A stretch of DNA of 61,107 bases, counting the filler. It is 8 parts of 8 records of this genome, joined end to end, with 100 filler letters (N's around TTAATTAATTAA, not from the genome) between each part and the next. Parts side by side here need not be neighbours in the genome. Positions count along the whole stretch, not along the records: positions 11,561 to 28,819 come from SRR7504441_6056; 7 more parts are not named here. One strand, 5' to 3'. Below, in pieces: positions 1 through 43,757 of the stretch (position 1 is its first letter; every line of letters starts with the position of its first letter). The notes beneath the pieces are model-generated. The model worked only from the letters and a program-made list of their open reading frames with translations, did no database searches and had not been told where the DNA came from. Position numbers and translations under genes: made by a program.

Positions 1-1662
1 CTCAGAGAGGATCAAGAGCCCTCCAGGTTTCAGCAATTTGTGTGTATGAGTCAGGGCGACTCGCAAGTTACGTGTAGCATGGAGCACGTTCACCGCAACC
101 ACACCAGTGAAACTGTGAGCAGAAAATCCCTGGTCGCAAGGATCTATCTCAGCATTGAAGATGCCATACCGTACAAAAGTATAGCGGTGGCGCCAACGGC
201 CTCTCGCACGATTAAGAAACGCATCTGAAAGGTCGGTGAACCAATATTCGGTATCGTCTGGTGGAAGTAAAGGTAGAATGCCTGTGGTCGTGCCGCCGGT
301 TCCTCCTCCAATTTCAAATAGTCGCAATGAGCACTGCATACTCACAGTATCGCGCACCAACGCCTTAACCAGCGCCTGAACCAGGCAGTTGTATAGCCGC
401 ATTGCAGAGCTATCAGCATAGACTGCCTCCGCTTCGTCCATGCTGCCCTGAGGGAACAGCAGCTCGAGGGGATCAACAGTGCCATCAAACACTTCTGCGA
501 GACGAGGTCCGCAACGCTCCACCATTGCAAGCGACGATGCGACTTCTGGGTAATCTTGAATTATCTCTTCATATGAGACATGCTCCAAGGTTTGCTCCAC
601 ATGCATGCTATTCACAAGACGAGGGTGCCATCGAGCCCAAAGCTTGCGGTGATGTTCAAGACGAATTTCATGCATTTCGATTGTAGCCAGGGCTGCCCGA
701 AGATATTGTCGTGCAAGTCTCTCCTGCTTGACAGCGCACACATCCATGCGACTCAGATTCAGAGAGATGTCACTGACAGCAGAACGCATAGCATCAACAG
801 CTAGGTTGGCGATCTTTGGCGATACTACCTTGTTGTGCGATGCCATTGAAGACAATGGATCGATAGCAGCTGCAAATCCAGACTTCACCAACCGGAGCCG
901 AAGATGTCCTCCTTGATGAAAGACCAACTCTGGCTCGTTGCCAAGTGAGGATGGATTTAGTCTTAAAACTGCATCCATATCAGGATTGGCAACAGGGCAC
1001 TCCAAACACTTGAGCCCCAGTGATGGTTGTTCGACTCTGGCGGAACGAGCAAAACCCCAGAGTCCTGCATGAGCCCAAGACCCCACTGGACTCAGACAAG
1101 AGACTATACCAGTGTGTGTTAGCACTATCACTTCGGATCTTGAGTGAGCAGCGGCTTTACTCAGCCGCAGAACGTCATTCTGGACTTCATAGTACGTCGC
1201 CCCCGGTGTCAGCGCACCAGCATAGATTACTTTGTGAGAACTCGAGCTTTTGAGAGCAGAGACATCAAAGTTGAGAGGCAGCACTACTCGTGCAGTTCGT
1301 GTCTTAAGAGGGATCTCGTCCAGTCCAATGGTTGGTACCCAAGCTTCCTCCAAGGGAGAGCGCATGGATGAGACACCTTTCAGCCCCTGGACATGACTGC
1401 TAGTGAGGTACGCAATCTTGGCTCCGCTGGTCGAGCTACATAGCCATCGAAGTGATGAATCAAACGTTCGAACCTGGCCTGCACTGGAAACGCCCCATAC
1501 CGTCTTATCCATGCAGTCATGGGTAGAACCTAGCCTCATTGTGCCCAAACTGCTGAGAATCGATGGTCGGCTGGCGTGGCCTGGATCAGCCAGGGCTGCG
1601 CTCTGGGCACCCATTGCCATTAGCACAGAGGCTCGAAGGTCACTGGCCTCAGGGATGCTCTC
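1..1662 (-). CDS. Final visible exon of the megasynthase: DH C-half, pseudo-KR and C-methyltransferase (absent from ORF track because it runs off the window)
   Basis: Hand translation shows no stop from 1662 to 1: DPLELLFPQGS..AVY, LFEIGGGTGGTT (SAM motif I), EYWFTDLSDAFL, NVLHAT, LLKPGGLLILSE. Confidence 0.93.
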
Positions 1663-4600
1663 CTGACACACACACTGTCAATGGCTTAGCAATACAAGCA
1701 CAAGCAAGTTACCAGGAAAAGCGACTGCTCTTCGAAGGTGAGCCTATCCACTAAAGTGAAGCCTGCATCGTCATTATTCTGCACTGCCCAAAACGAGTGC
1801 AGGCATCGGAAATCGCCACGCATATCGTTTCCAGTTGCTGCATACAATACCTCTCCATCGAATGTGCGGGAAGATGCTGTTGGAATGATCTCGAGATTGG
1901 GTTCAAGTCCTGATAAAGAAGAGAGCTCCACTATGGCATAACTGGCCTGCTCTGTCGACGAAGCTTGGGAGAAGATCTCAAACTGCTGGTGCCTGTCCGT
2001 AGCTAGCTCCCTCATCTGTAACATACACTCGAGCTGTTCGTCCGTGAGGAAAAGAGGTTGCAAAAACCGCGTGGCTGGAACTGTCATAGACCAAAGACCA
2101 GTTTGCTGATGATAGATGTTCCTTACCATCTGCATGTATGCTGTCCCAGGAAATAGTGGTGTCCTGCCCACACGGTGCTGCGCCATGTAATTGCAAGAGA
2201 CGGCTGGCCAGGAGCGCTCCCAGGTGGTAGGGTTGTGTGGTCTTAGCAGAGTCGAATCAAAGCGTTTCAGCTCCACGAGGTCGCTCCAAGTAAACACTGA
2301 GTGTCTGTATACAGTCGCACCAACTTGGGACAATGCACCTGCTAGGCTACTCTCCGGTGTTACAAGTGTCATGTTGTCAGATGCCAGCGTCGCATGACTG
2401 TTTGTGCCTGAGAAGCCAAACGAGCTCAATCCGAGGACCCTGGCCTGGCGAAAGTGACTCTCAGAGGTCATGAGAGCAGCGAAGCCCTCTAAGTCGCACG
2501 TCTCATTGCTCTGTTGCAAGTGCAGATTGGGAAGGAAAGAACCTGATTTCAAGATGTGCAATACTTTCGTCAAGCCAGCTACTGCAGCTGCCCCCTCCGG
2601 GTGCGCAATCAGTGATTTGATTGCCCCCAGGGCTAATGTGTCCGCTGACTCCGTGCAGCTACTCATCACCCTATGCAGCGCACCCACCTCTATCGGATCA
2701 CCCAAGGCAGTACCAGTACCATGCGTCTCCACCGAATATGCCTTAATCAAGCGTGCTTGGCTTTTTGCATCTGCGACCACCTTTTGTTGTGATGGGCCAT
2801 TCGGAGCCATGAAACTTGCGCTACGGCCGTCTTGACCGACAGCAGTCGAGGAGAGGTAAGCTATGGACCAAGCAGCACCTTTCTCGAGGAAAATGGCGCC
2901 ACACGCCTCAGAGCGGCCGTAACCGCTTGCAAGATTATCAAATGTCTTGCAGCGACCATGGACCGACAATGCATGCAGAGCACACATCGCTGCGAAGGAG
3001 AATGGGTGGAGGTTGAGACAGCAACCGGCGACGATGGCACTGTGAGAGCTCTGATGGTACAGGTTCTTATGCGCAATGTCTAAGGCCACTGCAGCCGAGG
3101 AGCATGCGGTGTTCACAGAAAGGCATGGCCCTTTGAGACCAAACAGGTAAGATAGGCGGCCTGAAGCTGAGCTGCCATCCTGGCCATGTGCGGTGTAGAC
3201 GCTCAGGGGGAGCTCCTGCTGCACAGCCACCCAGTCGAAATTGCACAGTCCAATGTAGACGCCCACTGCCATTCCTGCTAGGCCCGATTTGGTCCAACCA
3301 GCTTGCACTGCAGCACTAAAAGCGGCCATTAGAAGCAAACGATGGCTAGGATCGGTGTAGGTTGTCTCAGACTGATTCATCTCAAAGAATTGATCGTCAA
3401 ATCGCTCTATCCCAGTCATGAAATTGCCGTGCTCTGTGTACACGGCCTGGACTGCGTGGACATCGAACCTCAGGGTTGGTATGACGACTGTATTGTCCAC
3501 AGCACAGCACATGGAAGACCACCAAGATTTTGAGTCAGCAACGCCTCCAGGGGCAAGCATGCTCTGGCCACTAATCGCTGCTGTCACAGGAAACTGATCC
3601 TGCCTCAATGAATCTCTCTCTTCTGGAGAGGTATAGTCTCGTTGCTCTGCATGCTGGGATGCATTAACATACAGCGCCATGCTTCTCGTAGTCGGGTAAT
3701 CGAAAACAAGCGTGCGAGGTAGCTTGAGACCGAGGTCGCGCTGAAGAGTTGTGTGAATTCTGATCGAAGCCTGTGACTTAACTCCCGCTGCCATCAAGGG
3801 CACGTCCAATTCAGGAGCCTGCTCCATGACTTCTGTGATTCGTCTAGAGATCACCCGCTGAAGAGCAACAAGCTGCTCCACTGGAGCGCCTCTCCCATCT
3901 ATCCAGTCGTCTCTTCCAGGCTCAGCAAGACGAGATGACACCAAGCTGCCGTCAGATACATTTAGGCCGGATTCTATTAATGGTGGAACTGTCATGCAAG
4001 TGTCTGGCACACTACATAATACCAAATGAATGTTGTCGCCACTCGCCGAGGTTCCACTAACAGTTCCAACCCTCAACTTCTGTCCTGGCAGACTCATTGC
4101 TGCGCTAGGAACACACAGTACGCGAGCTTCGCGCAACTCTTTCATCAGCTGCAAGGTCATGTGTCCGGGCAGGCATTGATTTGACACTGCGAGGCAGGAC
4201 AATAGCAATCCGACGATACCAGCTGCGCTGACAGTGTGACCTGAGATAGCAAACACACAGTAAACATCAGACGGGCCTGAGGCGCACCAAAGTTGGTTTT
4301 GTGATCCAGGATCAGCAGTGGTGCAGTTGGCCGGTTAGAACGAATTCTATTGACCACTGCAAGCACCTCTGGAACGTCGGATTTGGGGTTGCCCTGGCAG
4401 TCACATTCACAGGGGGCAACTATTTGCGGGTATCTCACCATAGCATGTAAGTGGGTAAAGACGAGGTCTTTATCGGTGACATCAGCGCGCAGGAGGCTTG
4501 ATTGTGCCGCTTGCTGCATCCTCTGCGGGTCAGTAAATCCAGGAGGAGTCAATGTGCTGGTCCGACTTGTTGCCCTGTCCAGACCGAGTCATTTGCTGGA

Positions 4601-7600
4601 GCACAAAGGGTTAGCCACCAGCTTAAAAGACTCCCATGTGGTTGCGAGCTCAGAGGAAAGCTGCGACTGAGGAACAAAGCAGAAGAGCCCTCGCCCCAGA
4701 GCATTCCGTCCGCATTCTCTTGCAGGGGACGCATAGAGCCCGTTAGCGACAGGATGCTTCGCAGCAGGATTTCTACACCCCATTCTGGCCGGATCATTAG
4801 CGATACACCCGCAGCGACCGCAGTCTCACACAGCTGCTCAGCTAAAGACTCTGCGGCTTGAGAGACGGCCAGGTACCCAGAGGAGCAGACCGCCTCCACA
4901 TTGCTGTATGGGCCTTCAGTCCTCAGCAAACCAGCCAAAACTCGTGCAACCATGAAACTTGCCAGTGGGACTGTGTAGTCGCTGGTCTGTGCCGCTGTAA
5001 AGACTCCATACTTAGAGATACCAGTCGCATCGACTGCTTCCCTCACGGTCTTGCACAAGCAGTTCATATGGCTGTCCAGATCATCACGTGCACTGCTAAC
5101 AGCCAACAACTTGTCCTCTAAGAAAGCGCCACCTGCTGCAAGAAGCTGAATCGGCGCCTGAGCACACGCCTCCTTCCAGCGGGATGGCACATCTTTTGTT
5201 ATATGGCATCTCTGTTTGTGCAGATTCTCCCACAAATCCGCAGGTGAGAAAGTGCGACCAGCCAGCTTGCATGCAAAGCCAGTCAAGCTGAGACCCTCAG
5301 ACTTTGAGCATTGCAGAACTCGCGGGGCAAAGCAGCTGCTTCCTTTTGGTGCTACCTTGCTAACAAGCTCAACTAAATGTGTCGTGACTTTTCTCAGTGT
5401 CGGGTATTGGAATACCAGTGTGCTCTCGAGCTGCACTGAAGACCCAAGGTCGCGCTGCAGGGTGCTCACCAACTCTATCGCTGCAAGGCTGTCCAGTCCA
5501 TTATCCTCCAACAAATCATCTGGGCCGATGTTTTGTGAGGTGCACTGCTGGACAGCGCGCTGCACCGATAGTTCAATGTCTGCTTTGGAGAGAACAGCTG
5601 CAGTGCTTTGCTGCAGGTACGCTTGTGGAAGAGTGAAATCAGACAGATGGTCAGGAACGGTGCAGTAGAGAGTCAGAAACTGGTGCCACAACATATCGGC
5701 ATATGCAAGACAGGCGTCGTTTGAAACCATGGCCCATTGAATTGCCCACAATCCAATCGTGTTTGTGACCCCTCCTGCCACATACCCGGCTTTCCCTTCA
5801 GACGCCAAGTGGATCCAGTCAACCCCTGCAGCCATTCCAATATCTGTCCACGCGCCCCACTGCATACTGAGGGCCGCGAGCCCAGCAGCGCGGCGGTGCT
5901 GCACAAATGAGTCAAGACAACTGTTTGCTGCGCTGTACACGTGCTGATTGCGCACTCCGAACACTGCTGACGTGGAAGAAAATGCCACAAAGCATCGAAG
6001 GTCTTGATGTCTAATGCTATAGTCTAGATTGTGGGTTCCTTCAAGCTTTGGCGAGAGCACCATTGAAATTTCCTGTATCGAAAGAGCCTCAGTTGGGTTG
6101 GACTGAGCCATGCCAGCTGCATGGATCATGCCATCAACCTGAGGAGCTCGTTCTAGTGCACTAGCCACCGATTCTGCCACAGCAACCTCACATGACACAA
6201 TGTTTGAGCTAGTTGCTTTGCTACGCGAAAGCAACACCAGTCGAGGTGTACCATGCTGAACCATCCATTCTGCAAAGAACGACCCAAGCCCCCCCGTCCC
6301 GCCGGTCATGGCGTAGACCGAGCAGCAATCAAACCAAGGTGTCCTTAGCACCGCTAAGCTGCTGCGCGGCAGTCTGCCTAGCCGAGAGGTCTGATGCCGC
6401 CCATTCCAAACAACAACCAGCTCTGCCGTGAGACCGGACAGTGACTGCTCGTCCAATACATGCCGAGACCCTTTAATGTCGACGATGCTCCAGATTTGGG
6501 ATTGGCTGTCTAGACTCTGAGATCGAATAAATCCCAAAAGCACACTGTGCATCCACTGCCAGCAGGCAGGCCCAAGGGCTCCACAGGTCACCACGCACAC
6601 AGGAACCCCAGGTGGAAGATGTTTCCCAAGACTAATAATATCGGACATCAGAGCCACAACAGCAGCTGGAGTATGTGGCAGTCGCATTGCATCAATACAG
6701 ATCTTTTTGTCTGTAGTTTCATAGGGACCCAGTAAGCCCATCCCAGCATCAAGGATTAAGAATGGCGACTGGTTATTACGCTGCACTTGAGTTGTTGATT
6801 GCCATCTCGTCTGGTACGTGCAGCGGCGGAGCCGGTCACCTTCAAGGATGCCAGGTTCGAAGTATCCAGGCCTCCCACCATCCATGCGGCAAACTAATGC
6901 ACCACATTGGTTGTAAATCCCCGTAGAGCGAGACCAAAATGTAGCATTCTGGTCAAACCCGATGGAACTGATGACGCACTGATCCAGGCCGTCGAAGTAA
7001 AATGGATGACCTATACAACCTCGAGCATCTGCCAACACTGACGCATGTCCACTTGCATCCATCACAGCCACAGCTCGAAGCTCGAATTCCGTTGGATTGG
7101 TGGTCTCTGAGCTGAACTCGAGCTTCTCACAAATCTCATCATCTGCTAACCATACAGCGCTCACACATTGAAAATCTCCGCAATACTTGTTTCCGATCAT
7201 GGAGTACAGTGCATTGCCTTCTAACAGCAGCTCGGTACACGGAGTTTGAACCAGGTCGGGATCAACATCATCAACAGCAAACTCCGAGCACTCAACAATT
7301 TGCATGCTAAAGTTTGTATTCCACATCTCGATTTCAAAGTTGTAGGACTCGAGGATGACCCGCCGAGAGGAGCCATCTACAGAAGCGCGCATTTGTTTCG
7401 CAGTAACGCTAGAGTCTAGAAACATGAACGCTTTGAAGACAGCATCTGCAAGCTTCACTGCATTCATGGACGGAAAGAAGCGTTGACCTATGCAGCTGGC
7501 AGTTTTAAGGTAATAAGTTCCCGGGACGAGCGGGACTTCTCCAACAAGATGATTCTGAAGAAAGCTCAGAAAGGAGCAATCCCATTGATGCTGCCAGACT

Positions 7601-10600
7601 GGAGGATCTGACTGTCGACTGGACAACTGGCCTAGAAGAGAATGCCATCCATTCCTGCTATCATGGTGCATTTTGATCTCCCACCAGGCAAATGCCACCT
7701 GCTTGTACAGGACCAAGTTGTGCTTTTCGGTCGTAGCAACTTCCTGGGATCTAGACGACATGCACGACAGAATTGCATGAGCATTGGTGCCAGCATACCC
7801 GAATGAGCTCACCCCAAGCGCTCCGGTCAATGGCACACCCTGCGATGGCAACACTGAAGGAAGATCTTCCGCAACCAGTATATGAGGATTGACGGCGGAA
7901 AAGTGCAAATTTGGCCCAGCGCAGCCAACCAGAAGAGCACATACACACTTCACCACCCCACTCAATCCAGCAGCGAATTCTGAGTGGCCGAAGTTGCTCT
8001 TAAGCGCCCCAATTACACCATGACATCGTCCTGAGCGGCACCGGTGCACCTGAGCCAAGGCTGAGACTTCAATCGGGTCCCCAAGAGCTGTTCCCGTCCC
8101 GTGCGCTTCGACAGATTCGAGTTGCAATACATTAGCTGCGCCCAAGGCCTCCTCAACAACATGTCGCTGCGCCATACCATTTGGCGCCATGAAGCTTGCG
8201 CTTCGACCATCCTGATTGACTGAAGCAGCATCAATAATCACACGCCTCTGCTCTATATGCAACTTGGTAAAGAACACAGCGGAGCAAGCGTCACCCCGTC
8301 CGTATCCATCAGCTCTGCAATCAAACGTCTTACAGCAGCCATCGGGCGAGAGCGCTTGTAAAGCACACATCATTATCCACACTGCTGAGCCTATGGTCAA
8401 GTTGACCCCTGCACCGATTGCATGCTGACAGCTGGAAGTATTCAAGCACCGGCAGGCTGCGTCCAGAGCCACCAGGGAAGATGAACATGCCGTGTCAACG
8501 CTGAGGCACGGGCCAACTAGCCCCAGTAGGTATGATATCCGACCGCAGGCTGCTGCTGCATGGGCGCCATGTGCAGTGTAGGTACTGATCCGACCTATGA
8601 ACGAACTCCAACCTGTGGATCCGAAGCCCAGAAACACTGCGGTCCTAGAACCAGACAGAGATGTTCGTGTCTGACCTGCCGCAGCAACTGCTCCAAATGC
8701 TGTCTCAAGCAAGACCCGTTGGTGAGGATCAGTGGCCTGGACCTCTGCTGCGCCCATTTCAAAGAATTCTGGGTCAAACAGCTCAGGCTGCTTGATGAAG
8801 TGGCCATGCTGCACGTATATGTTATGCAGTTCTGACTGAGCGTAAGATTCAGGAATACTCTGCACTGACTCGTGTGCTTGAAGCAACGTGGCAAATAGTG
8901 CTGATGGACTTTTGCAGCTGTTGGGTGCAGAGCACTGAATGCCAGCTACAGAGCAGGAACTCTCAGTCTCCTCAGTCGAACACTGGCCCAGCAGCTTTGG
9001 GGCTACAGCGCCTGTATCAGGGTCGCTTAGTTTAAAATCGAGATATTCAGCAATGGCCGCTGCAGTGGGGTACTCAAACACTAGCGTCACAGGGAGCTGT
9101 GATGCGGCCGGTTGCATCAAGGCTTGAAGTGAACGACTCAGGCGCACAGCACTGAGTGAGGTCAGCCCAGCTTGCATGAGCGGTTGCGTCAGGCCCACGT
9201 GGTGCCCCACCAGAGCCTCTACCTGTTCGAGAACAGCATTCTCGATATGAAATCGAGAAGGACCACGCTGAGCAACGCTTCTTTTCACACCGTCTGTGAC
9301 ACTATCTGTCTTTGTGACGGCAACAGCCATAAGCTTGAGCAATCGCCGTCGGTCTAGCTTCCCGGAAGTGTTGAGTGGCCACTCGGCCAGTGCCAGCACC
9401 TCTGACGGCACCATGTAGGCTGGAAGTCTACGTTGGCACAACTCAACAACTGAGTCTGGCTCAGCGGTGTCAGGTACTATGTATGATATCAGTCGGTCGG
9501 CACCGGTGTTGGACCGCAGTATGACAGCATCCCGCACCCCTGGTGCAGTCCGTAACACAGTTTCTACCTCGTTGGCTTCTATGCGGTTGCCGTTGAGCTT
9601 GATCTGATAGTCAATTCGACCGAGAAACTCCAGGTTGCCACTCGCCAACCAGCGGGCCCGGTCGCCGGTGGCATAAAATCTGTGCTGTGCGCGGTGCACA
9701 AAAGCTTTGGCTGTCAGGTCAGGACGCCGCACATATCCCCGTGCTAGTTGCACTCCTGCAATAATCAAGTCACCTGGTGCATCAAGAGTGGACGAAACGG
9801 TCGGACAAAAACCAATGCGACAGCTGATATTTTGTAACGGCACCCCTATGGGCACTGCGCTTTCCCAAGCTCTGTTGACATTCGAAACACTTGCAATAGC
9901 TGCCTCTCCGGTGGTTTCCGTCTGGCCATAGATATTCCAAACAGTGCGAGGTCCCAGCTGTTGTAACTTGTAAATCAATGCAGTCGGGCATTCCTCGCCA
10001 CTGACTACAACTGTACACAGGAAAAGTGGCCATTTCCCGGCCCACAAGTCGACGAGAAGAGACAATACAGAAGGCACAAGCATTCCAAATGAAACAGCCG
10101 CTTGGGAGCAAAGCCGCAAAACAAGCTCCGGAAATAAAAATGCGCGCGGTCTTGATGTCACCAGTGTACTTTGATTCACGAGAGCACACCAAACCATCAC
10201 AAGTGAATCCACAAATGTGAAACTTGTCGCATAGAATGCAACATCTGTCTCTAATAGCAGGAGCTTGGTCGACAATCCAAGTGCGCAGTTGGTCAAAGAC
10301 TGATGAGCAAGGGCAACTCCCTTTGGAACTCCAGTGGAACCAGATGTATACAGGACACAGCACAACCCGTTGTCCCTGGCCCTGGGAGTACAACTCCTCT
10401 CCAGTACCTGTGGATTGGTGCTTTCCTCCTCTATCACCAGCACTGTAGTCTGTCCGAGCAGGAGCAAAGCAAATCTCTTCTGCGCCACCACCACGCCGCA
10501 TTCGCATTGCGTTACCAGATAACGCAGCCGCTCAACAGGGAATCTCGGGTCAAGAGGCACGTATGCGTACCCAACTCGCATGATCCCCACTATCCCCGCA

Positions 10601-11460
10601 ACCTCTTCTACACTCTTCTCTGTGCAGATCCCGATCAAACCCCGAGAAATGCTTGAGGTCAGCAGCCTAGCAGCCAACCGTGTGGTCCTCCTTTCCAGCT
10701 CGCTGAAGGTGACTACCTCGCCCTCAAAGATGACGCCAGCTGCTGCAGGGTTGCACGCTGCCACCAGCTCAAAGATGCTGGGCGCAGTGCCCCCAGCACA
10801 GAATGCCGATGCGGTAGCATTCCACCGCTGCAGAACCAGTTCAGCCTCACAGAGCAGTACCAGCGGCAGGTTGGCAATGGGAGTCCGTGGCTGGCTCACT
10901 ACTGCATGTATCAACTGTGCCAGTCGACGCTCCAGTCGGGCCACCTGCATGCCAACAGAGGTCAGTTGCAAGCAAAGGCGTGGTTTCACCGTTCCGGGCT
11001 GAAACATGGTGACATCGTAGCTGATATGGCCAGTCCATTCGCTTGAATTGCGACGAGATGGTGCTAGGTGAAGCTCCAGCTCCACACTGGCAGCCTGATA
11101 AAGCAAAGGTGTACACACTTCCAAACCTGTCATTGCCGGCATACTCGACTGACCAAAGCCTTCCTCCCACAAGAGCATGGTCTGGTACACTGGTGAGTGG
11201 GAACGACGGCGCTGGAGTTCTGACAGAGCCCCAACAACCTGTACAAATGGGACCGACCCATGACACAGGCATTCCAGCACCACCTTGCTTGTTTCTGCCA
11301 CCAGTGTGCTGAAACCAGCGTTGGAATTGATCGGTATCAAGGCTGCCAGCGTATTTACGAAGTAGCCCACAAGCGGTAGCACCAATTGGTGCTCTCGGTG
11401 AGCATACGGGAACCCCACCACCACTTCTGTCTGCCCAGTGTGCCAGTGTAGCAGTCCGGC
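1..11460 (-). CDS. Hybrid NRPS / trans-AT type I PKS megasynthase, internal fragment open at both ends, 5 short introns
   Basis: One frame after removing GT-AG introns 10989-10945, 4618-4575, 4438-4394, 4287-4241 and 1712-1663. Motifs in order: C-domain tail (GQTEVVVGFP..LVGYFVNTL); A domain (YTSGSTGVPKG, YGQTET, FYATGD, TSGKLDR); PCP (GLTSL); KS (DTACSS, HGTGT, KSNFGH); DH (HLVGEVPLVP); KR (TGGTGGLG, YSAAN); ACP (GLDSL); divergent KS; ACP (GVKS); KS (NTACSS, HGTGT); DH (HRVGRTPLFP); pseudo-KR (GLWGFARS); cMT. No AT domain. Confidence 0.95.
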
Positions 11461-12844: not shown

Positions 12845-15616
12845 ATGGTCCAGATCGAGCGGGTGTTTGTCACCTGGGCGCCTACCAACGCCGCGAGCTG
12901 CAAGGGCTGCAACTCCAAGTTCTCCAAGGGCGAGTGTAAGGTGGCCTTGTGCTCGCCATCGCCCTGGCACTCGGGTCTGGACAACAACTTCTACCACCTC
13001 CGGTGCTGCCAGGCCCAGCTTTTGAAGTTCGCCGAGCAGCGGCAGCACGCCCCACCGGACTTCTACTACAAGCTGTCTAGTAGCGAGCTGACCAGCTTGT
13101 ACCAGGCCGCTCCGAACATGCTGCCCCAGGTGGACCCGGCTGCCATCGGCCAGCGGACCGTCCTGGACGAGGCGCTCTGGCGACTCAAGTTCGGGCTGCA
13201 GGAGCTGTCGCCCAAGGCCTTGAAAGAGATGCTCGAGCTCAACCAGCGGTACTTTGACGACAGCTTCAAGTCGCCCAAGCTGGCCCACCACTGCGCCCAG
13301 GGGGTGATGTTTGGAGCCACCCCGCCGTGCCCGGCGTGCAGCCAGCGGGCGCTGATTGTGTGCCCGTTCCTGAACGAAGTCCACTGCGAGGGCAACGTGG
13401 ACGGGTTTGCCCGGTGCGAGTACAAGGCCGCGCTGAGCACGGTCGAGAGGAGCAGCTGGAGCGTGCCCAAATCGTGCAATGGGAGCAAGAGCCCGATCCC
13501 GGGGTTCGTGCACCCCGAGCCGTCGCAGGGCAGGGAACTGATCCAGACCGCCGCCAGCAAGAAACCGGCCAAACCGGCCAAACCGGCAAACCCAGCCAGT
13601 CAAGCCGACAGCAAGAAACCAAAGCAGCAGGCGCCAGTGGCGGTGGACAGCACTCATCAGGATTCGGCGCCGGCTGTGGGCTGTGAATTGGATGGGTGCA
13701 CGTTCTTCTTTTCCGGGAACTTTAGCGGGGACCGGCCGAGGCTGATGCAGATGATCAACTCGGCTGCAGGTGGAGTCTGCTCGAAAGCGAGCAAGGCCAC
13801 TCACATTCTAGTCCCAGCAGCGGCGGCGAGCAAGCCCGGCCCGAGCGCCGCGCTGGCCAAGGCGATGAATGCGCGCAAGGACATTCCGGTGGTGGACCAC
13901 AGGTTTGTGGAGGGCTTGGTCCAGAGTCGAACTCTCACGCTGCGCGAGCCGGCCAGCCTGGAGCGATCTGGGCTGCTGCTGTTTGGTTCGAAGCCGGGCG
14001 GGCCGCTCCAGCTGTCTGGCCAGCCGACCCTGGCCGAGGAGCCGGAGGAGTGCGCGGAGCCGGAGCCCGATGGCCGGGCGAGCAAGCGGCGCAAGCTGTC
14101 GAGTGCGAGCGCCCGGTTGGTTCCCGATTCTGAAGGCCCAGGGGGGAACATTGTTGTGACCGACGACGGATGCGACTGCTTCAGCGTGATGTTGAACATG
14201 TTCACACCGACAGACAACAAGTATTACCTGCTCCAGCTCAGCCAGTGCGGCCGGCGGGGCGGGCAGTATGTTCTGTTCATGAAGTGGGGCGCAGTTGGAA
14301 CTAGCGCGCTCGACACCCACTGCAACACCTATGGCGCCAAGGCTGACGCGATCAAGGCATTCGAGGCCAAGTTCAAGGACAAGACCGGCAACAAGTGGGC
14401 CAATAAGCAGAGCTTTGTCAAGAAGCCCGGCAAGTACGCTTTGGTCGACCAGGCAGACGGGGACGAGTCGGAGCCCGAGCCCTCCGAGCCGACTGCGAGC
14501 GAGCAGCAACCGACGCCAAACCCGGCCGAGGAGCCGGAGCTGACCAAGCCGGTCCAAAAGCTGATCCGGACGATCTTCGACGCCAAGGCGGTGGCTGCAG
14601 CCTTCCAGGGGATGCAGCTCGACGCGTCCCGGATGCCTCTGGGCAAGCTGTCGCGCAGGACTATCCTGCAGGCCTACAGCGTGCTCAAGACGATGCTCGA
14701 ACTAGTCGGCGAGAACCAGCTGCCGCCCGAGGTAGTCGAGTCGCGGCTCAAGCCGGCCACGGCCCAGTTCTTCACGCTGATCCCGCACATGCATGCCCCG
14801 GCGGTGATCAGGGACGAGCAGGAGCTCAAGGCCAAGGTGGGCATGCTCGACGACCTGCTGGGGCTCGAGGCCTCCCAGCGGCTGATCAGCGAGCGGTCCG
14901 GGGTGGGCTGCTCGGTGTGGTCTCAGTACCAGAGCCTCGGGCTGGACATACAGCCGCTGGACAGCTCGAGCCCGGAGGCCGGTGCGATCGAGAAGTACGT
15001 CAAGAGCTCGCATGGGGCCACCCACCAGCAGTACATGCTCCAGATCACCGCGCTGTACAAGCTGGATCAGCCCGAGATGAGCCAGCGGTTCGAGAAGGTG
15101 TCCGGCCGGATTCCCAACAGGCAGCTGCTGTGGCACGGCTCGCGCCTGGGCAACTGGGTAGGCATTCTGAGCCAGGGCCTGAGGATCGCCCCGCCCGAAG
15201 CGCCAGTGACCGGGTACATGTTTGGTAAAGGTGTGTACTTTGCGAACTCGGTCTCGAAGTCGGCCAACTACTGCAGATATGAGGAGCACAGGGAGAACCC
15301 GATCGGGCTGCTGCTGCTGTGTGAGGTCGCACTCGGGAACACACACGAGCTGACCAGGGCCAACACGGCGATTGTAAAGCCACCGGATGGGTACCATTCA
15401 GTCAAGGGATGCGGCCAGATGAGGCTTCCGAACAAGACGCAGATGGCGGATGGCGTGTCTGTGCCTTTGGGCCCGATTGTGAAGGACCAGACGTTCCAGA
15501 CCTCGTTGATTTACGACGAATTCATCATTTATAATGAGGGCCAACAGAGGCCGCGCTACCTCGTAGAAGTCAAGTTTGTAGAACCATTTTCTCTCAGCGA
15601 CTCCGACTCTGATTGA
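12845..15616 (+). CDS. PARP1: Poly(ADP-ribose) polymerase, PARP1-like (zf-PARP, PADR1 zinc domain, BRCT, WGR, regulatory, catalytic), intronless
   Basis: CKGC..YHLRC finger; MFGATPPCPAC; MPLGKLS; LLWHGS, GYMFGKGVYFA, KSANY, YDEFIIY (H-Y-E triad). Confidence 0.95.
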   Translation: MVQIERVFVTWAPTNAASCKGCNSKFSKGECKVALCSPSPWHSGLDNNFYHLRCCQAQLLKFAEQRQHAPPDFYYKLSSSELTSLYQAAPNMLPQVDPAAIGQRTVLDEALWRLKFGLQELSPKALKEMLELNQRYFDDSFKSPKLAHHCAQGVMFGATPPCPACSQRALIVCPFLNEVHCEGNVDGFARCEYKAALSTVERSSWSVPKSCNGSKSPIPGFVHPEPSQGRELIQTAASKKPAKPAKPANPASQADSKKPKQQAPVAVDSTHQDSAPAVGCELDGCTFFFSGNFSGDRPRLMQMINSAAGGVCSKASKATHILVPAAAASKPGPSAALAKAMNARKDIPVVDHRFVEGLVQSRTLTLREPASLERSGLLLFGSKPGGPLQLSGQPTLAEEPEECAEPEPDGRASKRRKLSSASARLVPDSEGPGGNIVVTDDGCDCFSVMLNMFTPTDNKYYLLQLSQCGRRGGQYVLFMKWGAVGTSALDTHCNTYGAKADAIKAFEAKFKDKTGNKWANKQSFVKKPGKYALVDQADGDESEPEPSEPTASEQQPTPNPAEEPELTKPVQKLIRTIFDAKAVAAAFQGMQLDASRMPLGKLSRRTILQAYSVLKTMLELVGENQLPPEVVESRLKPATAQFFTLIPHMHAPAVIRDEQELKAKVGMLDDLLGLEASQRLISERSGVGCSVWSQYQSLGLDIQPLDSSSPEAGAIEKYVKSSHGATHQQYMLQITALYKLDQPEMSQRFEKVSGRIPNRQLLWHGSRLGNWVGILSQGLRIAPPEAPVTGYMFGKGVYFANSVSKSANYCRYEEHRENPIGLLLLCEVALGNTHELTRANTAIVKPPDGYHSVKGCGQMRLPNKTQMADGVSVPLGPIVKDQTFQTSLIYDEFIIYNEGQQRPRYLVEVKFVEPFSLSDSDSD

Positions 15617-15966: not shown

Positions 15967-17193
15967 TCAATGGATGTACTCGAGGTGCTCGTGTCTAGCA
16001 AGCTCGCTCATGTACTCAGGGTTCAGTGCGTCGTCTGCATGGGTGCCAGGCTCGAGTGCATCTGTCTGATTGAAGATCCGCTTCACTTCGGCGTACACCG
16101 CGAGATGGATGTCCCACAGGTTTTGCTGAAAGATCTTGGTCTCCATGTTAGTCACAAGTGTCATGCTAAAATCCAGATACGGGTTGTAACCAGAAAGCGA
16201 ATAGAAGCCCCAAGTCGCGCCGCCATGCCCAAAGAAGTCCGGATAGATGCCCATAGTGCCAAGCCCGTAGTACACGGGGAAGTAGGGCGAGAGCATACTG
16301 AACCGGATCATCTCTAGCACAGTGCTGCACTGGACCACTTTGCACTGGCCGTCCCCGTACAGTAGATGCACCCACTTGGCCATGTCAAGCGGGCTGGCTA
16401 TCACATTCCCACACGTCCAGCCGCCCAGCGCGCTCATATTCCGCACCCATGAGCCGCCCGGCTGCCTGCCGTCGACTGTTCCGTTGTACGCGCTCAGCGG
16501 GCCGTGTTTGGCAAACTCGATAGAAGGGAGCGGCTCGGCAGCGAGCGGGAGAGGGCTTTGCTTCACGCTCTCCCAACTGGAGGCGTTCTGGTGCGTCATG
16601 AGCAGCAGCCCGAGCAGGATGTAGTTGACGTCCGAGTACCAGCCGCACTTGCCCGGGGCGCAGGCCGGCTCCTTCTTGGTCCGAGAAAGCAGCTCGATTG
16701 GCCCGAAATCGTGTCCGGGGGCGGCCATTTGCCACTGTCGGAGCTCGGCCGGCAAGTCGAAGATGCCGGAGGTCATCGACAGCAGCTGGTACACGGTCAC
16801 GTTGGCCACCTGGGCCGGGAACCCGAGCTGCTCCAGCGAGGTCCGGTTGAGCCGCTGGAGAGCCGCGTCCACTGGCTCGGCCGCCGTGCTGTTGAGCGAG
16901 AGCGAGCCGGCCTGGACCAGCTTGAGCACGCTGCTGGCGGTGAACATCTTGGTGCCCGAGCCCCACAGCCACCGCGCGTCGGGGGCCGCCCCGGAAGCCA
17001 GCTGGACCCCGACCCCGCGCCGGGGCGAATAGATGGCCACGCCGATGGCCGAGTTGTTCCACTTGGACGACTTGGCCGCCAGCAGCCCCGGTAAGGCCGC
17101 TTGCAGCGCGGCCGTGGGCGTCTGTGGCTGCTGGGCCAGCGCTGCCCAGCAAGCCCCCGCCAGCAGCCACAGCTGCAGACCGTGTGCCTGCAT
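15967..17193 (-). CDS. Secreted serine hydrolase, beta-lactamase class C / PBP-like family, intronless
   Basis: Hydrophobic signal peptide; SGTK (SxxK); LLSMTSG; YSDVNYILLG; GHGG. Confidence 0.85.
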   Translation of the reverse strand: MQAHGLQLWLLAGACWAALAQQPQTPTAALQAALPGLLAAKSSKWNNSAIGVAIYSPRRGVGVQLASGAAPDARWLWGSGTKMFTASSVLKLVQAGSLSLNSTAAEPVDAALQRLNRTSLEQLGFPAQVANVTVYQLLSMTSGIFDLPAELRQWQMAAPGHDFGPIELLSRTKKEPACAPGKCGWYSDVNYILLGLLLMTHQNASSWESVKQSPLPLAAEPLPSIEFAKHGPLSAYNGTVDGRQPGGSWVRNMSALGGWTCGNVIASPLDMAKWVHLLYGDGQCKVVQCSTVLEMIRFSMLSPYFPVYYGLGTMGIYPDFFGHGGATWGFYSLSGYNPYLDFSMTLVTNMETKIFQQNLWDIHLAVYAEVKRIFNQTDALEPGTHADDALNPEYMSELARHEHLEYIH

Positions 17194-22059: not shown

Positions 22060-23082
22060 TCACGGATCCCGATCGCACTCAAAGAAGAAAACGCCCAACC
22101 CGCCGATCCCGAGCTCATCTAAGGTGGTGTCGGGCGACACCGCGGCCGCCAGCTCGAGCATCTCGAGCCCTGGCTGACCGGTTCGCTCGGACGACTTGTA
22201 TGTGCTTGTGTTGGGCTCATTTACATGCTCATTTGTAGTCTGTCGGTGCACATAGTGCACCCCAGCTCCGCGGCTGCCGGGCAAGCTCGGGCAGAAAAGG
22301 TCCAGCCAGTTGTGCGCCCCAGGCTCGCCGGACAAGTCCACCAGCCGCTGGCAGCCGCGCGGCCGGCCCTTGCCCAGGCCCCTTGCAGGCCCGTGCGGCC
22401 GGCCTTTGCCCAGGCCCCTGTATGTGTTGCCCAGGCCCCTGTATGTGTGTGAGAGATGGCCTTCGCCCATTCCGTGCACGGGCCAGCTGAATCCGTTGGC
22501 GTCCGTGTGCACTACCTCCCACGGCGGCCCGCGATACCCGACCACCCGAGTGCAGCCCGGCGGCTCCCCCCCTTTCCCTGGCGAGTTTCGGCCGGCGGTC
22601 AACCGGGCGGCCACCTCTGGTGAGAGCAGCAGCTCCATCAACTCGCCGAGCGTGCTGCCCAGCTCCAGCTGGCGGCACTCGACCAGAGCGGCGTAGCGCA
22701 CGCTGAACATATTTTTGGAGCTCCAGCCCGGGGTGCCCTTGATCCCGATTCTTCTCCCCGCTGCCTTCCCGCCCTTGCCGAAATCTTCCCGCCGCACCAG
22801 CGCGCAGCTCAGGAAGCAGCGCCGGCCAAAGTGCTTGTGAAGCGCCCTGACCAGCAGCAGCTGCAGCGCCCCCGGGATGTGCCGATGGAGCGCCAGCAGC
22901 CCCGCCGCCGCCCGGCGCTTGAACCGGTCCGACTGCAGCGGGTGCGTATCCGGGTTCCAGTCGCTGGCTCGCTCGAAGAGCTCCAGCTCGGATCGGGCCA
23001 TGGAAGGAGCATGGAAGGGTCCCCTCACCACCGGACGCCCTCCGCAGCTCCGCTCGAAGAGCTCCTCCAGATCTGCCTCCAT
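22060..23082 (-). CDS. Hypothetical protein (340 aa, intronless) with a short (TY/A)RGLG repeat
   Basis: Long ORF with ATG, divergent from the 23208 gene; no recognisable family. Confidence 0.55.
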   Translation of the reverse strand: MEADLEELFERSCGGRPVVRGPFHAPSMARSELELFERASDWNPDTHPLQSDRFKRRAAAGLLALHRHIPGALQLLLVRALHKHFGRRCFLSCALVRREDFGKGGKAAGRRIGIKGTPGWSSKNMFSVRYAALVECRQLELGSTLGELMELLLSPEVAARLTAGRNSPGKGGEPPGCTRVVGYRGPPWEVVHTDANGFSWPVHGMGEGHLSHTYRGLGNTYRGLGKGRPHGPARGLGKGRPRGCQRLVDLSGEPGAHNWLDLFCPSLPGSRGAGVHYVHRQTTNEHVNEPNTSTYKSSERTGQPGLEMLELAAAVSPDTTLDELGIGGLGVFFFECDRDP

Positions 23083-23207
23083 CTCCCGCCGAGCTCCACC
23101 CGGCTCAGGCCTGCCAGGGGCTCATGTCAGGCTCCAGCCGGCAGGCCAACAGACTGAGAGATCGTGCTCTCATCTCATCACCGGGGCGGCGGTACGCAGG
23201 GAAACAC

Positions 23208-24656
23208 ATGGAGCCCCAGAGCGGCAAGCGGCAGTGCGAAGCGCTCAGCCAGGCGGGCGAGCAGCCGGTCGACCAGATCCAACTGTTGCACCTCCTCAGG
23301 ACGGCGGGGATCGCCGGGCACATCCTGAACGCGTGCATGAGCCGGCACTACAACAGGGTCCGGGCGCGCAACGAGTCGGCCATGGTGCTCTGCAACCTGG
23401 AAGAGCTGAGCAAGACGGCCCGGGCCGCGCTCTGGGATCTCCGGGGGGCACGGGAATCGTCGGCCAACCCGTGGCGCTGGGTGGCCCAACTGTACGACCC
23501 GAGGGCCGAGTGGAAGATGGAAGCTCTGTGCCCGCAGATCCCAGAGCCTGATCGGGACTGGCGGTGGCTAGTCAAGGGGCGGCACTGGGCCGACCTGGAC
23601 GACAAGACGGTCCTGATCCAGGCGGTGAGCGCCATGAGTCGCACCCTGGCCTGTGAGGACAACCCGGACGTGTTGGTTCAGTTTGAGTCGCGCTGGGACC
23701 GCTGCTGGCTCGGGGCCTCGGTGTACGATCTGTGCACCCGGAAGGAGGACTCGTGCTCGGACGAGATGTACCAGCTGGCCTCCGACGCCATCCGCCAGTT
23801 CCACGCAATGCTGCTCCAGGGCTGCCAAGACTCGAGTGGGCCTGACAACCTGGCCGCGATCGCCCGAGCCTGGGGCCGCCGGTGCTCCTTCGACCGGCAC
23901 GTCGCCGGGGTGTTCGGCTACTTGGAGCGATACCACATCCCGCGCCACAACCTCAGCCCGCTCAAGCCAATCTCGCACCAGCTTTTCGTGTCATCAGTTC
24001 TGCCTCTACTCGATCGGTCGGCGCTGCTCGATCGATCGGTGCTAGACGGCTGCTCGGAGGCGACGCTGGCCAACGTGGCCCGGATGGCCAATGCGTGCGC
24101 CGAGCATCTGCCCGGGCTGGTCTTGCCTGATTCGCTCAAAGAACTGCCAGGCCAGCTGGAGCCGGAGCCTACCAATCAACCGCTCACGGACGCTGACGCG
24201 CCCTGTCTTTTCATCACCTCTGACGGCACCGAGCACCAGTTCGTGCCGAGCCAGGTGGTCGGCTCCGGGCTGCTCTGGGCCTGCTGTGAGCGGCCGGCCG
24301 GCTCGGACAGCAGGGGAGTTGTCCACCTGCCGGCGCTCAAAGAAAACCGTTACTTTGGCCGGGTGCTGAGCTTCCTGAAATACGAGGCCGAGCACAGCGA
24401 GGCGACCGACGGGGAGCGCGAGCTGTGGGAGGCCCAGTTCGTGAGCGGCGGGGACGACCAGCTGTTTGCTCTGGTGCTGCTCGCTAACCAACTCGACTGC
24501 AAGAGGCTGCTTGACCTGGCGTGCAAGGCCATCGCTGACGAGATCAAGAAATGCAAAAGCCCGCAAGAGATCCGGCGGCGGTTCAACATCAAGAATGACT
24601 TCACCCCCGAGGAGGAGCAGCAAGTGCAGGCCGAGAACGCCTGGGCAGGAGAGTAG
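23208..24656 (+). CDS. Fusion of a cullin N-terminal repeat and a SKP1 domain, intronless (an upstream in-frame ATG exists at 23124)
   Basis: VYDLCTRK..SDEMY..W..VFGYLERYHI..L.PL (cullin repeat 1, ~23720-24010); ITSDG..WEAQF..LFALVLLANQLDCKRLLDLACKAIADEIK..SPQEIRRRFNIKNDFTPEEE..ENAW (SKP1, ~24207-24656). Confidence 0.88.
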   Translation: MEPQSGKRQCEALSQAGEQPVDQIQLLHLLRTAGIAGHILNACMSRHYNRVRARNESAMVLCNLEELSKTARAALWDLRGARESSANPWRWVAQLYDPRAEWKMEALCPQIPEPDRDWRWLVKGRHWADLDDKTVLIQAVSAMSRTLACEDNPDVLVQFESRWDRCWLGASVYDLCTRKEDSCSDEMYQLASDAIRQFHAMLLQGCQDSSGPDNLAAIARAWGRRCSFDRHVAGVFGYLERYHIPRHNLSPLKPISHQLFVSSVLPLLDRSALLDRSVLDGCSEATLANVARMANACAEHLPGLVLPDSLKELPGQLEPEPTNQPLTDADAPCLFITSDGTEHQFVPSQVVGSGLLWACCERPAGSDSRGVVHLPALKENRYFGRVLSFLKYEAEHSEATDGERELWEAQFVSGGDDQLFALVLLANQLDCKRLLDLACKAIADEIKKCKSPQEIRRRFNIKNDFTPEEEQQVQAENAWAGE

Positions 24657-24922
24657 TGAGTTTACTAATGAGCGCTTCTAACGTTCTAACTTAACACATG
24701 TATGCGCACAAGTCGGCACGGATGTGCAGCCGGCCAAGATCCCACACCCACTAGTTTGTTAAATCATTGACATTACGTAGTCTATAAGCTTACATGTATG
24801 TGTACAATAAGTCGACTTCATCCTTGAGCTCCTGCACACTGCTCCTGCAGGCCGCACGCAACGTGGCTGCTCACGGTCGAGTGGCTCACGAGCGTTCATT
24901 CAGCAGCAGCGAGAAGGGCGGT

Positions 24923-26113
24923 ATGGCTGACCTGGATCAGAGCCGCCGGTGGGACCCAGTGGTGTCGGAGGTGGAGCAGGAGGAGCAGGAGGAGACCCAG
25001 CTGCAGCAGCGGCTCATCCAGCTCGACAAGCAGATCCGGTCCATCCGCACCGCCCTGGCTCAGCCGACCGAGGGCGCCGACACCGCCGGGCTGCTCGGCC
25101 AGTGGCTCGGGCTGGCGGAGGAGGCGATGGGCCTGCTCGAGCCCCGGAGCACAGAGCTCACGCTGCAGCACTCGATTGCCACCTTCAGGGAGGCCCGGGC
25201 TATGGCCCGCTTCCTGGGGTCGGTATCCGATCGACGGCTCGACTTGGCTGTGGAGCCGGTTGTGCGAGATCTGGCGGCGGCCGAGGCGATTGCGCTGCAG
25301 GAGGGGTACGATAGCATCGCGATGCGCTGCCTGCAGTCGCAGCGGACGGTGTTTTTGCACCCGTTGCTCATGTTCGAGACCGCCGGCTTCCAGGACAAGC
25401 TGATCAGCGTGCTCAAGGAAATCTCAGTCCGGGATCGGAACGTGGCCAGCGCCACCGAGTTTGCGGACCACCTTCAGCTCAAGGTGGTGGGCGACCTGAC
25501 CATGACCAAAGCCTGGGCCGAGCACGTTAGGAGCACGTTCAGCCCAAACCTGGCACACGTCCAGTGGTACAGCACCTACTGGAGCAACTACGTTTGGATG
25601 CGGAAGAACGGGCTGGGCCAGCAGGAGTGGGTGGATCGGCCGTGCTCGTTCGATCCGGCGGAGGACAGCATAATGAAAGAGAGCATCAAGGATGGGAGGC
25701 CGCTCACGATGGCAGTGGTGGCCAACGGCCTGGCAGCCGAGTTCAATAGCGTCAAGACCCGGAGCAGGGCTCCAACGGTGTTCGCGGAGAGCGCCGAGCT
25801 CAAGCGGTGCTGCGGGGGCACGCACCACGGGGAGGCCTGCCAGCTGGCCAACAAGGCTGTCGAGGCGGCTCTTGAGGTGGACGGGATGGCGGTCGGAGAG
25901 CTCCGGGCGTTGCAGGCCAAGCTGACTAAGTTCCAGGACACGCTGTGGAAACTGGAGTTCCAGGAGGCGGTGAGCATCATGAGCCAGCCGATGCAGCAGC
26001 TAGACGATAGGATAAAGCAACGGCAAGCGGAGGAGGGCGCTGCAGCGGAGACGAGAACGGAGACTAAGTTGAAAGCCAAGCCGGGCAAGATGAAGAAAGG
26101 ATTCTTGTTATGA
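24923..26113 (+). CDS. Hypothetical helical / coiled-coil protein, intronless
   Basis: Long ORF with coding-like GC3; AATAAA at 26167. Confidence 0.65.
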   Translation: MADLDQSRRWDPVVSEVEQEEQEETQLQQRLIQLDKQIRSIRTALAQPTEGADTAGLLGQWLGLAEEAMGLLEPRSTELTLQHSIATFREARAMARFLGSVSDRRLDLAVEPVVRDLAAAEAIALQEGYDSIAMRCLQSQRTVFLHPLLMFETAGFQDKLISVLKEISVRDRNVASATEFADHLQLKVVGDLTMTKAWAEHVRSTFSPNLAHVQWYSTYWSNYVWMRKNGLGQQEWVDRPCSFDPAEDSIMKESIKDGRPLTMAVVANGLAAEFNSVKTRSRAPTVFAESAELKRCCGGTHHGEACQLANKAVEAALEVDGMAVGELRALQAKLTKFQDTLWKLEFQEAVSIMSQPMQQLDDRIKQRQAEEGAAAETRTETKLKAKPGKMKKGFLL

Positions 26114-42281: not shown

Positions 42282-43757
42282 ATGGTCGAACGGATGGGCA
42301 CTGGCTCCAGCCTTCTAGCGCTGCTATTGCTGTGCCGTGCGGCCGTCGGGTTTGATGTGGCAGTCGGCCCAAACAGGACGCACACCATTGGGCCAGACTT
42401 CTTCTCTCTGACGGCCGACTCGTCCGCGTTCAGCCTGGAGGCCCACAACAGCACCGTGAGCAAGCTGGCGGCACTGGAGCGGTTCCTGGTCGGGCTGGCC
42501 CCGCTGACAATCCGGGTGGGCGGCACGCTCACAGACATGCAAACGTTCCCCTCTGGACCGGCTCCGGGCAGCCCGCGCTCGCCGCAGCACGTGTGGGACA
42601 TGGACTCCTGGGCGCTGATCAATCAGATCACAGCCAGGCTGCCCGGCTCCCAACTCGTGGTGAGTGTGTCCGGGCTGCAGCGCCATTGGAACCAGACTGG
42701 TGTACCGTGGGATCCCACCAACGCCGAGTCCTTTGTGCGCGCCAACTTGGCGCTTGGCTACGATCGGATCGCCGCGTACGAGCTCGGGAACGAGCCAGGA
42801 TGCTGGAACTCACACGGCGGTGCGGTGACGCCCGCCCAGCACGCGCTGGACTTTGGGCAGCTCCGGGCGGTGATTGCAAGAGCATACGCCGGTCGGAGGC
42901 CTCTGCCAATGGTGATCGGTCCTGACACTACAAACTGCGGTGGAGACGTGTTCAACGCCACAATCGCTCACCACCCGGACATTGACGTGGCCACAGTCCA
43001 TCTATACAGCGTGGTGCCCACCTCCAGTCTGCAGGATTTCGTCGCCGCTTCGCGCTCCTCAGCTATGTGCCAGAGAGCGCAAGGTGCACTGGCCGAGCTT
43101 CGTCGCTCGCTCGGGGGCATCCCTCTGTGGAATGGAGAGGGCGGTGCCTCATATTTGTACCCTCCAGCAGGCGGCTACTTGCATCAGTACGGTGGTGCAC
43201 TGGCCCTGCTCAACAATTTGGGCTGCCTCTCAGCTGTCGGGGTGGCCAAAATGTTGAAACATGATCTGTTTGAAAACATCTTCAGTTCCGAGCCAGATCC
43301 AGCTCCAACACCTACCTTCTGGGCAGCGTACGTGTTCAAGCGGCTTGTGGCCTGGAATGCAGGCCAGCCTGGGAGCGCCGGAGTGATGCCGGTCAAACTG
43401 GAGGGGGCCGACTCCGGTATACACGTCTATGCGTTCACCCAATCTGCGGCGGACGAAACCAATGTGCTGATGGCACTCAACCTAATCAATGTGAGCGAGA
43501 GTTTTCGGTCGCCGCTGCTGCCATGCCAGCACACTCGGGTCTACAGCCTCTCACCACATCAGGCCACGGGACAACGAGTGGATGAGTCAGAGCCTGTATG
43601 GCCATGGAATGCAGCCGAGATGCAGCTCAACGGTCAGGTGTTGGCAATGCAAGCAAACCAGACGTTTCCAGATTTACAAGCGTGGGCAATTCCGTTACCG
43701 TGCGGTGCGAGCGTGACTGTACCTGCTTTCTCTGGAGTCTTCTTGGTGAACGCATGA
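42282..43757 (+). CDS. Glycoside hydrolase family 79 (heparanase / beta-glucuronidase-like), secreted, intronless
   Basis: Signal peptide; IRVGGT; YELGNEP (acid/base Glu); VIGPD; LWNGEGG (nucleophile Glu); PTPTFW..FKRL; QLNGQVL. Confidence 0.9.
   Translation: MVERMGTGSSLLALLLLCRAAVGFDVAVGPNRTHTIGPDFFSLTADSSAFSLEAHNSTVSKLAALERFLVGLAPLTIRVGGTLTDMQTFPSGPAPGSPRSPQHVWDMDSWALINQITARLPGSQLVVSVSGLQRHWNQTGVPWDPTNAESFVRANLALGYDRIAAYELGNEPGCWNSHGGAVTPAQHALDFGQLRAVIARAYAGRRPLPMVIGPDTTNCGGDVFNATIAHHPDIDVATVHLYSVVPTSSLQDFVAASRSSAMCQRAQGALAELRRSLGGIPLWNGEGGASYLYPPAGGYLHQYGGALALLNNLGCLSAVGVAKMLKHDLFENIFSSEPDPAPTPTFWAAYVFKRLVAWNAGQPGSAGVMPVKLEGADSGIHVYAFTQSAADETNVLMALNLINVSESFRSPLLPCQHTRVYSLSPHQATGQRVDESEPVWPWNAAEMQLNGQVLAMQANQTFPDLQAWAIPLPCGASVTVPAFSGVFLVNA

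Follow-up and report, generated by a model that had tools for sequence, protein, structure and literature searches.

A conserved and apparently undescribed cullin-SKP1 variant of known SCF parts

The control of SCF (SKP1-CUL1-F-box protein) ubiquitin ligases by neddylation, by the signalosome and by CAND1 exchange operates in each case through the full cullin. CAND1 initiates exchange at the C-terminal domain of CUL1, to which it binds first (PMC11865535). A CUL1 fragment of residues 1-452 binds SKP1 and not RBX1 and acts as a dominant negative, and mutation of Y42/M43 in human CUL1 abolishes SKP1 binding (PMC4737497). In Cul3, the first cullin repeat's helices H2 and H5 make up the main adaptor interface, in an assembly that resembles SKP1-CUL1 (PMC3597819), and F-box proteins outside an active SCF could shield substrates, their levels being set partly by autoubiquitination (PMC4675558). 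Here we describe P0001, a protein of a marine unicellular eukaryote that is encoded in a 61,107-nucleotide stretch of DNA joined from eight parts (the window), in which a first cullin repeat and SKP1 share one chain. The literature searched, which did not extend to supplements and subscription papers, contained no natural cullin-SKP1 fusion, only engineered or unrelated SKP1 fusions. P0001 is a real, conserved and apparently undescribed variant of known SCF parts, with a narrow known range and a plausible inhibitory role.

Architecture of the fused reading frame

The open reading frame (ORF) of P0001 is a single frame without stops. Upstream, the frame is open from position 22923 and holds a further in-frame ATG at 23124. 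Its features, in amino acids (aa) of P0001 and positions of the window, are the following:

23208..24656, plus strand: whole ORF P0001, with N-terminal domain (N-domain), cullin repeat 1, linker and SKP1, 482 aa
23274..23591, plus strand: N-terminal helical domain, conserved and family-specific, aa 23-128; may be a degenerate F-box with its subsequent helices
23592..24017, plus strand: cullin repeat 1, five helices, aa 129-270, recognised by AlphaFold2 (AF2) model, fold match, Pfam and profile
23697..23738, plus strand: core of cullin helix H2, an adaptor-binding helix by analogy with cullins, aa 164-177
23913..23945, plus strand: cullin helix H5, an adaptor-binding helix by analogy with cullins, aa 236-246
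24018..24191, plus strand: post-repeat helices and linker, aa 271-328
24192..24443, plus strand: POZ/BTB-like front part of SKP1, strongly diverged, aa 329-412
24444..24653, plus strand: C-terminal helices of SKP1 with the F-box-binding tail, aa 413-482

Translation, Pfam, profile searches and fold matches agreed on the arrangement that a first-pass annotation had read from the sequence, namely one uninterrupted ORF with a first cullin repeat followed by a full SKP1 domain and its F-box-binding tail. The AF2 model of P0001, built on 9 family sequences, reached a mean predicted local distance difference test score (pLDDT) of 64.5 and a predicted template modelling score (pTM) of 0.51, and was searched against 48,161 PDB representatives; single-sequence AF2 (pLDDT 39) was unusable.

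In the SKP1 part, Pfam Skp1 (PF01466) matched aa 432-480 over model positions 1-48 of 48 (E 2e-22, 79.2 bits, cut-off 22.3), and the family profile spans SKP1 chains across almost their full length. The SKP1 fold occupies aa 333 to 477 of the model, which aligned 118 residues between aa 331 and 460 with SKP1 of 1LDK (1ldk_D; Z 13.1, root mean square deviation (rmsd) 2.6) and also matched the adaptors ASK1 (Z 13.2) and Elongin C. Pfam Skp1_POZ (PF03931) gave no match in P0001, and the POZ/BTB-like domain was recognised by fold and family profile instead. By fold and tail, P0001 is a SKP1-family protein and not a cullin, having one repeat and no cullin C-terminal domain. The SKP1 tail is intact, and F-box binding is predicted.

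A complete first repeat makes up the cullin part and begins near aa 130 (window ~23595). Its AF2 helices run at 132-149, 153-177, 184-207, 212-246 and 252-267 (block pLDDT 59-93), and the model matched Cul3 (4ap2_B; Z 14.3, rmsd 4.5, 173 aligned, aa 127-317), Cul2 (4wqo_D; Z 12.8, rmsd 3.1, 128 aligned, aa 130-271) and CUL1 (8or0_A; Z 9.7), while Cullin-1 8vvy ranked first for the N-half family profile (E 4.4e-4). The cullin match expected by the first-pass annotation at ~23720-24010 was recovered as Pfam Cullin (PF00888) at aa 171-265 (E 1.1e-4), covering only model positions 27-121 of 620 and scoring 21.6 bits, under the curated cut-off of 33.2; the repeat itself begins earlier. Because of this earlier start, the N-terminus, described as unrecognised and ~170 aa long, is in fact ~128 aa long and conserved in the family, and it did match no profile family.

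The cullin C-terminus is absent, as had been claimed. Pfam found no Cullin_Nedd8 or C-terminal cullin match in P0001, whereas the full cullin P0013 does give Cullin_Nedd8, and the ORF terminates after SKP1, so that the RBX1-binding and neddylation domains are missing. Nor does P0001 have the three-repeat cullin layout, since ~60 residues separate repeat 1 from SKP1. AF2 predicted a helix at 284-296 in this linker, and between helix E and the first SKP1 strand lie 65, 56, 80 and 29 residues, respectively, in those four family rows that are full-length.

Relatives, conservation and genomic surroundings

Four other lineages carry a cullin repeat and SKP1 in one gene (P0002, P0003, P0015 and L002), 31-38% identical to P0001. 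P0002 and P0003, both from JGI, were two of the five matches of the first search, and the whole-library search with aa 1-321 returned five matches, namely P0010, P0011, P0002 and two ordinary cullins. P0015, a 478-aa EukProt transcript in the cluster of P0010, has the whole architecture. Among 81 SKP1-bearing loci (the best 80 of 225 confirmed metagenome matches, and one viral), two, L002 and L019, have a cullin repeat ahead of SKP1. L002, on a metagenome contig, is a family member whose repeat is split by an apparent GT-AG, spliceosomal-type intron and whose N-domain region lies beyond the contig. The family profile search returned only two proteins, both already found, and a scan of 60 metagenome stretches with the N-half gave no relatives; family size is a lower bound, the whole-library search having used a single sequence and not a profile. 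Comparison of P0010 with P0015 also revealed that one isoform ends just ahead of the SKP1 C-terminal helices, without the F-box-binding tail, through a retained intron or an assembly artefact.

None of the 30 contig pieces listed (a further 111 fell outside the listing), which come from 4 of 19 marine sequencing runs, bridges the junction between cullin repeat and SKP1, and its support comes from the homologues. Parts of the N-domain and of the cullin repeat are matched by near-identical contigs, among them 373 nucleotides (nt) of a DNA run, with 5 differences, and 259 nt of an oligo-dT RNA run, with 3, where occurrence in an RNA library is no proof of transcription. The runs contained at most 0.10 of the sampled words, and gaps in cover are no evidence.

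Mean pairwise identities were calculated over five family rows (four beyond aa 246), with the register of H2 against human CUL1 taken from the alignment with Cullin-1. Within the cullin repeat, the H2 core and H5 reached 41 and 51%, versus 16, 28, 31 and 18% for helices A, C, D and E. F236 and Y238 of H5 are kept in all five rows, and in L002, which is not one of the five, His stands where Y238 would be. Within SKP1, identity was 25% in the POZ part versus 80% in the tail (aa 432-480). Against the standalone SKP1 P0020, the POZ parts of all five fusions showed 13-26% identity (P0001, 18%; standalone median, 47%) and the tails 73-90% (P0001, 73%; standalone median, 90%). A POZ part that drifts beside a tail that is kept is what one would expect were the cullin face to serve a single tethered partner of its own and the tail a large number of partners.

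A one-residue insertion in the tail signature is present in all five fused SKP1 domains and in 73 of 120 standalone SKP1 matches, the named ones with the signature being those of Telonema subtile and Roombia truncata. Because standalone SKP1s with the same signature exist, the fusion looks like an extra SKP1 copy. Among the five named SKP1s compared, that of T. subtile (P0037) is nearest to each family tail, with 48 of 67 residues identical in P0001 and 61 of 65 in P0015; by this one domain, the source organism is probably a telonemid or a neighbour. A search for a viral origin found a relative in one of 172 viral stretches, which is a standalone SKP1. When viral models were searched by fold, nothing matched at E <=0.001 and the top matches were only SKP1-sized, and L002, for its part, carries the spliceosomal-type intron. 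A standalone SKP1 with the family tail signature lies on a 28,892-nt contig (L003/L081) that is also recorded as a giant-virus metagenome-assembled genome, which suggests uptake from a related host.

The other locus, L019, encodes at 17-2395 (+) the 792-aa protein P0017, in which a UBA domain (E 1.9e-18) is accompanied by a SKP1 at the C-terminus and, at aa 170-253, by a cullin match that is weak (E 0.002). Since this SKP1 lacks the family signature and was placed among ordinary SKP1s, and since P0017 has no N-domain match, it is apparently an independent cullin-SKP1 fusion, represented by one sequence only. By eye, P0017 also holds a degenerate-SKP1-like stretch besides its C-terminal SKP1 of ordinary type. 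Two further architectures were observed: P0178 (JGI, 289 aa, on a 1159-nt contig) is a predicted protein whose Cyclin C-terminal domain (E 6e-32) leads directly into an entire SKP1, known from a single sequence that may be a chimera, and P0012 (Populus, 455 aa) has repeated pieces of the first cullin repeat with no neddylation domain, truncated cullins thus occurring in plants too.

The window is eukaryotic nuclear DNA, with polyketide synthase (PKS) modules, a PARP, a WD40 protein, a mitochondrial carrier, a kinase and others, several of them apparently intron-split; no other SCF part was found by Pfam among the 37 window ORFs scanned. Immediately downstream of P0001, a 439-aa ORF at 24794-26113 (+) has coding-like GC content at third codon positions (GC3, 0.84) and no credible Pfam match. 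At 12845-15616 (+) lies a PARP1-like gene in one ORF of 923 aa, with zf-PARP, PADR1, BRCT, WGR, regulatory and catalytic domains, and at 15967-17193 (-) an ORF of the Beta-lactamase family (serine hydrolase). Elsewhere in the window there are large ORFs of non-ribosomal peptide synthetase/PKS type at 1686-11178 (-), with AMP-binding, ACP, KS, DH and KR domains, no AT domain by Pfam and a GC content of 0.51-0.54, below the surroundings, and a GH79 heparanase-like ORF at 42282-43757 (+).

Proposed self-capping and the alternatives

On the reading that we favour, and give a little less than an even chance, P0001 would be a lineage-specific SKP1 paralogue with its own cullin cap, binding F-box proteins without RBX1, neddylation or stripping by CAND1. 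The tethered repeat would fold back and, like CUL1 in SCF, place H2 and H5 against its own SKP1 at the face that binds cullin; docked in this way, the repeat would exclude real CUL1. The intact tail would bind cellular F-box proteins in trans, and a captured F-box protein would sit in an SCF-like seat that is unable to ubiquitinate. CAND1 would be unable to open this capped seat, because it lands first on the cullin C-terminal domain, which is absent here. The F-box protein would be held and protected from autoubiquitination, with its substrates shielded, and the fusion would correspond, as a natural single chain, to dominant-negative CUL1, serving as an SCF brake or a receptor store, with the N-domain localising or switching the protein. 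We infer both the cis cullin-SKP1 contact and F-box binding by P0001, and a degenerate-F-box N-domain, if that is what it is, would change the mechanism.

A self-capped decoy or stabiliser had been proposed by the first-pass annotation. The complete repeat 1, the absent RBX1/NEDD8 half, the intact tail and the conservation of H2, H5 and tail are consistent with it, and the matches of CUL1 Y42/M43, which are not conserved, speak against it. The pTM of 0.51 lies above the 0.38-0.43 roughly estimated for undocked domains and is in keeping with a moderately confident docking of SKP1, which is a weak indication, and AF2 knows the SCF structure.

Several observations weigh against self-capping. The pTM arithmetic also gives 0.50 with the N-domain docked instead of SKP1, and the conservation of the N-domain is left unexplained by the self-cap model. 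The residues that match Y42 and M43 vary among the five rows (R/C/G/L/C and C/A/S/L/V; R165/C166 in P0001), and the match of CUL1 Y46 is Gly in P0001 and P0016; the full cullin P0013 is also without Y42/M43, hence these residues are not universal. H2 and H5 are conserved in cullins generally and the tail in SKP1s generally, and the pattern is therefore not specific to the self-cap. P0001 is the most diverged of the five fusions, with the longest branch, and the N-domain and repeat 1 occur in P0011 and P0016 in recorded ORFs without SKP1.

It is unlikely that the protein is a one-chain miniature SCF arm in which a degenerate-F-box N-domain fills its own SKP1 tail, acting as an autoinhibited F-box trap opened by a signal or as a rigid scaffold. 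The N-domain shows 30% mean pairwise identity over the five family rows, with N87-P88-W89 and W118-R119 invariant, and an AF2 pLDDT mostly <50. Short helices are predicted at 23-30, 35-45, 54-67, 69-77 and 88-96, which by eye resemble an F-box plus its usual next helices. In the ESM Atlas, P0003 aa 1-95 falls nearest to a cluster named 'F-box domain-containing protein' (0.87; F-box on 58% of members; 114 of 256 features common) and a second F-box cluster stands at 0.81, values that below 0.9 give a lead only; whole P0002 gave no usable match there. The alignment by hhalign likewise placed the N-domain in the correct F-box register with one insertion, but its probabilities were 0.08 and 0.58% and its score of 11.9 was matched by 1 of 40 column shuffles and exceeded by 5 of 10 control windows. 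Pfam gave no family in the N-terminus of P0001 or in P0009, NCBIfam and PHROGs gave nothing significant for the N-domain, PDB sequence searches with the N-domain gave no F-box, and an F-box profile from 8 viral sequences had no N-terminal match in 7 family proteins. This profile rests on 8-9 Pfam-checked viral sequences only, its 9-sequence version recovering many PDB F-box chains, and a diverged F-box could have escaped it; its Pro-x-Glu motif is absent from the N-domain. Complex prediction of the N-domain (aa 20-128) with SKP1 (aa 325-482) scored 0.02 in both runs and was not counted, the alignment being unused and the partner fold uncertain. Moreover, a tail that bound a private F-box alone should drift like the POZ part, and it has not. 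Descent of the N-domain from an F-box is possible but clearly less than probable, and its occupation of the SKP1 tail in cis is improbable.

We also give a low probability to a dedicated non-SCF adaptor, which would serve a single F-box protein or a small number of them, either within a complex that does not degrade or by passing them on to a different catalytic partner (a RING/RBR ligase or a separate cullin C-terminal half). The partner would be recruited by the N-domain or the post-repeat helix, and the cap would merely exclude canonical CUL1. Cullin-free SKP1-F-box complexes do exist (Roy1; PMC3084679), and the N-domain (30%) is as conserved as the cullin repeat, which argues that it has a job. 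The ubiquitin-binding UBA at the same position in P0017 hints at a recruiting or reading role for the front slot. However, no cullin, RING or F-box was found by Pfam among the 37 window ORFs, where intron-split genes could escape, and the near-canonical tail argues for broad rather than narrow F-box binding.

An open bridge acting in trans is less probable again. Its domains would stay undocked, the cullin tip taking ordinary SKP1-F-box pairs and the SKP1 part taking an F-box protein and possibly CUL1, so as to join two receptors or form chains. The linkers, 29 to 80 residues long and with little order in the AF2 structure, would permit this, and H2/H5 conservation would also be expected with canonical SKP1 as the partner. 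However, the Y42/M43-type loss and the POZ drift better fit a tethered private interface than conserved trans partners, and local concentration generally favours the tethered partner.

An assembly chimera, a two-gene read-through or a decaying duplicate, to which the unbridged junction and the sub-threshold Pfam cullin score would lend themselves, is highly improbable, because the same order recurs in open frames in the four other lineages (JGI, EukProt and metagenome contig), including a transcript and an intron-containing gene, because GC3 is uniform across the junction (0.78-0.90 in each segment, resembling the neighbouring PARP and the ORF at 24794), and because a quick tree with long branches unites the SKP1 domains of all five fusions (Shimodaira-Hasegawa-like approximate likelihood-ratio test, SH-aLRT, 84).

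A broader proposal, which we regard as speculative and rather unlikely, is that marine protists repeatedly (the P0001 family and P0017) built a one-chain, catalytically dead SCF receptor arm, and that in the P0001 family F-box, cullin tip and SKP1 together make a switchable, CAND1-proof trap for host or viral F-box proteins. If true, such arms would be a class of natural SCF regulators not described so far.

Comparison with known systems

The fusion comes from a barely studied protist lineage, and the apparently independent second fusion, P0017, suggests a useful rather than an accidental design. A natural SKP1 with its own cullin cap would regulate SCF from the other side, with receptors held and neither ubiquitination nor exchange, and could be a compact genetic tool to block SCF or to stabilise recombinant F-box proteins. 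Compared with SCF/CRL1 (cullin-RING ligase 1; SKP1-CUL1-RBX1-F-box, 1LDK), P0001 has the same SKP1 fold and tail and a first repeat with H2 and H5, but it is one chain, without repeats 2-3 and the RBX1/NEDD8 domain, with a diverged SKP1 front and an extra N-domain. The human CACUL1/CAC1 is also a short cullin-domain protein, which is reported to associate with Cul3-Keap1 and to stabilise the substrate Nrf2 (PMC4523873); it has no SKP1 fusion and acts on CRL3. The yeast Roy1 non-SCF complexes show that SKP1 can serve an F-box protein without a cullin (PMC3084679), but such complexes use ordinary SKP1 and have no dedicated capped paralogue. The BTB-Kelch adaptors of CRL3 are a natural single-chain joining of CRL parts, adaptor and receptor (PMC3597819), in which the cullin site is left free, whereas the fusion joins the adaptor to a cullin tip and would close that site. 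The engineered dominant-negative CUL1 (aa 1-452) likewise keeps the SKP1-binding end and has no RBX1 binding (PMC4737497), but the fusion is natural, has a single repeat and is joined to its own SKP1, and would therefore compete for F-box proteins rather than for SKP1.
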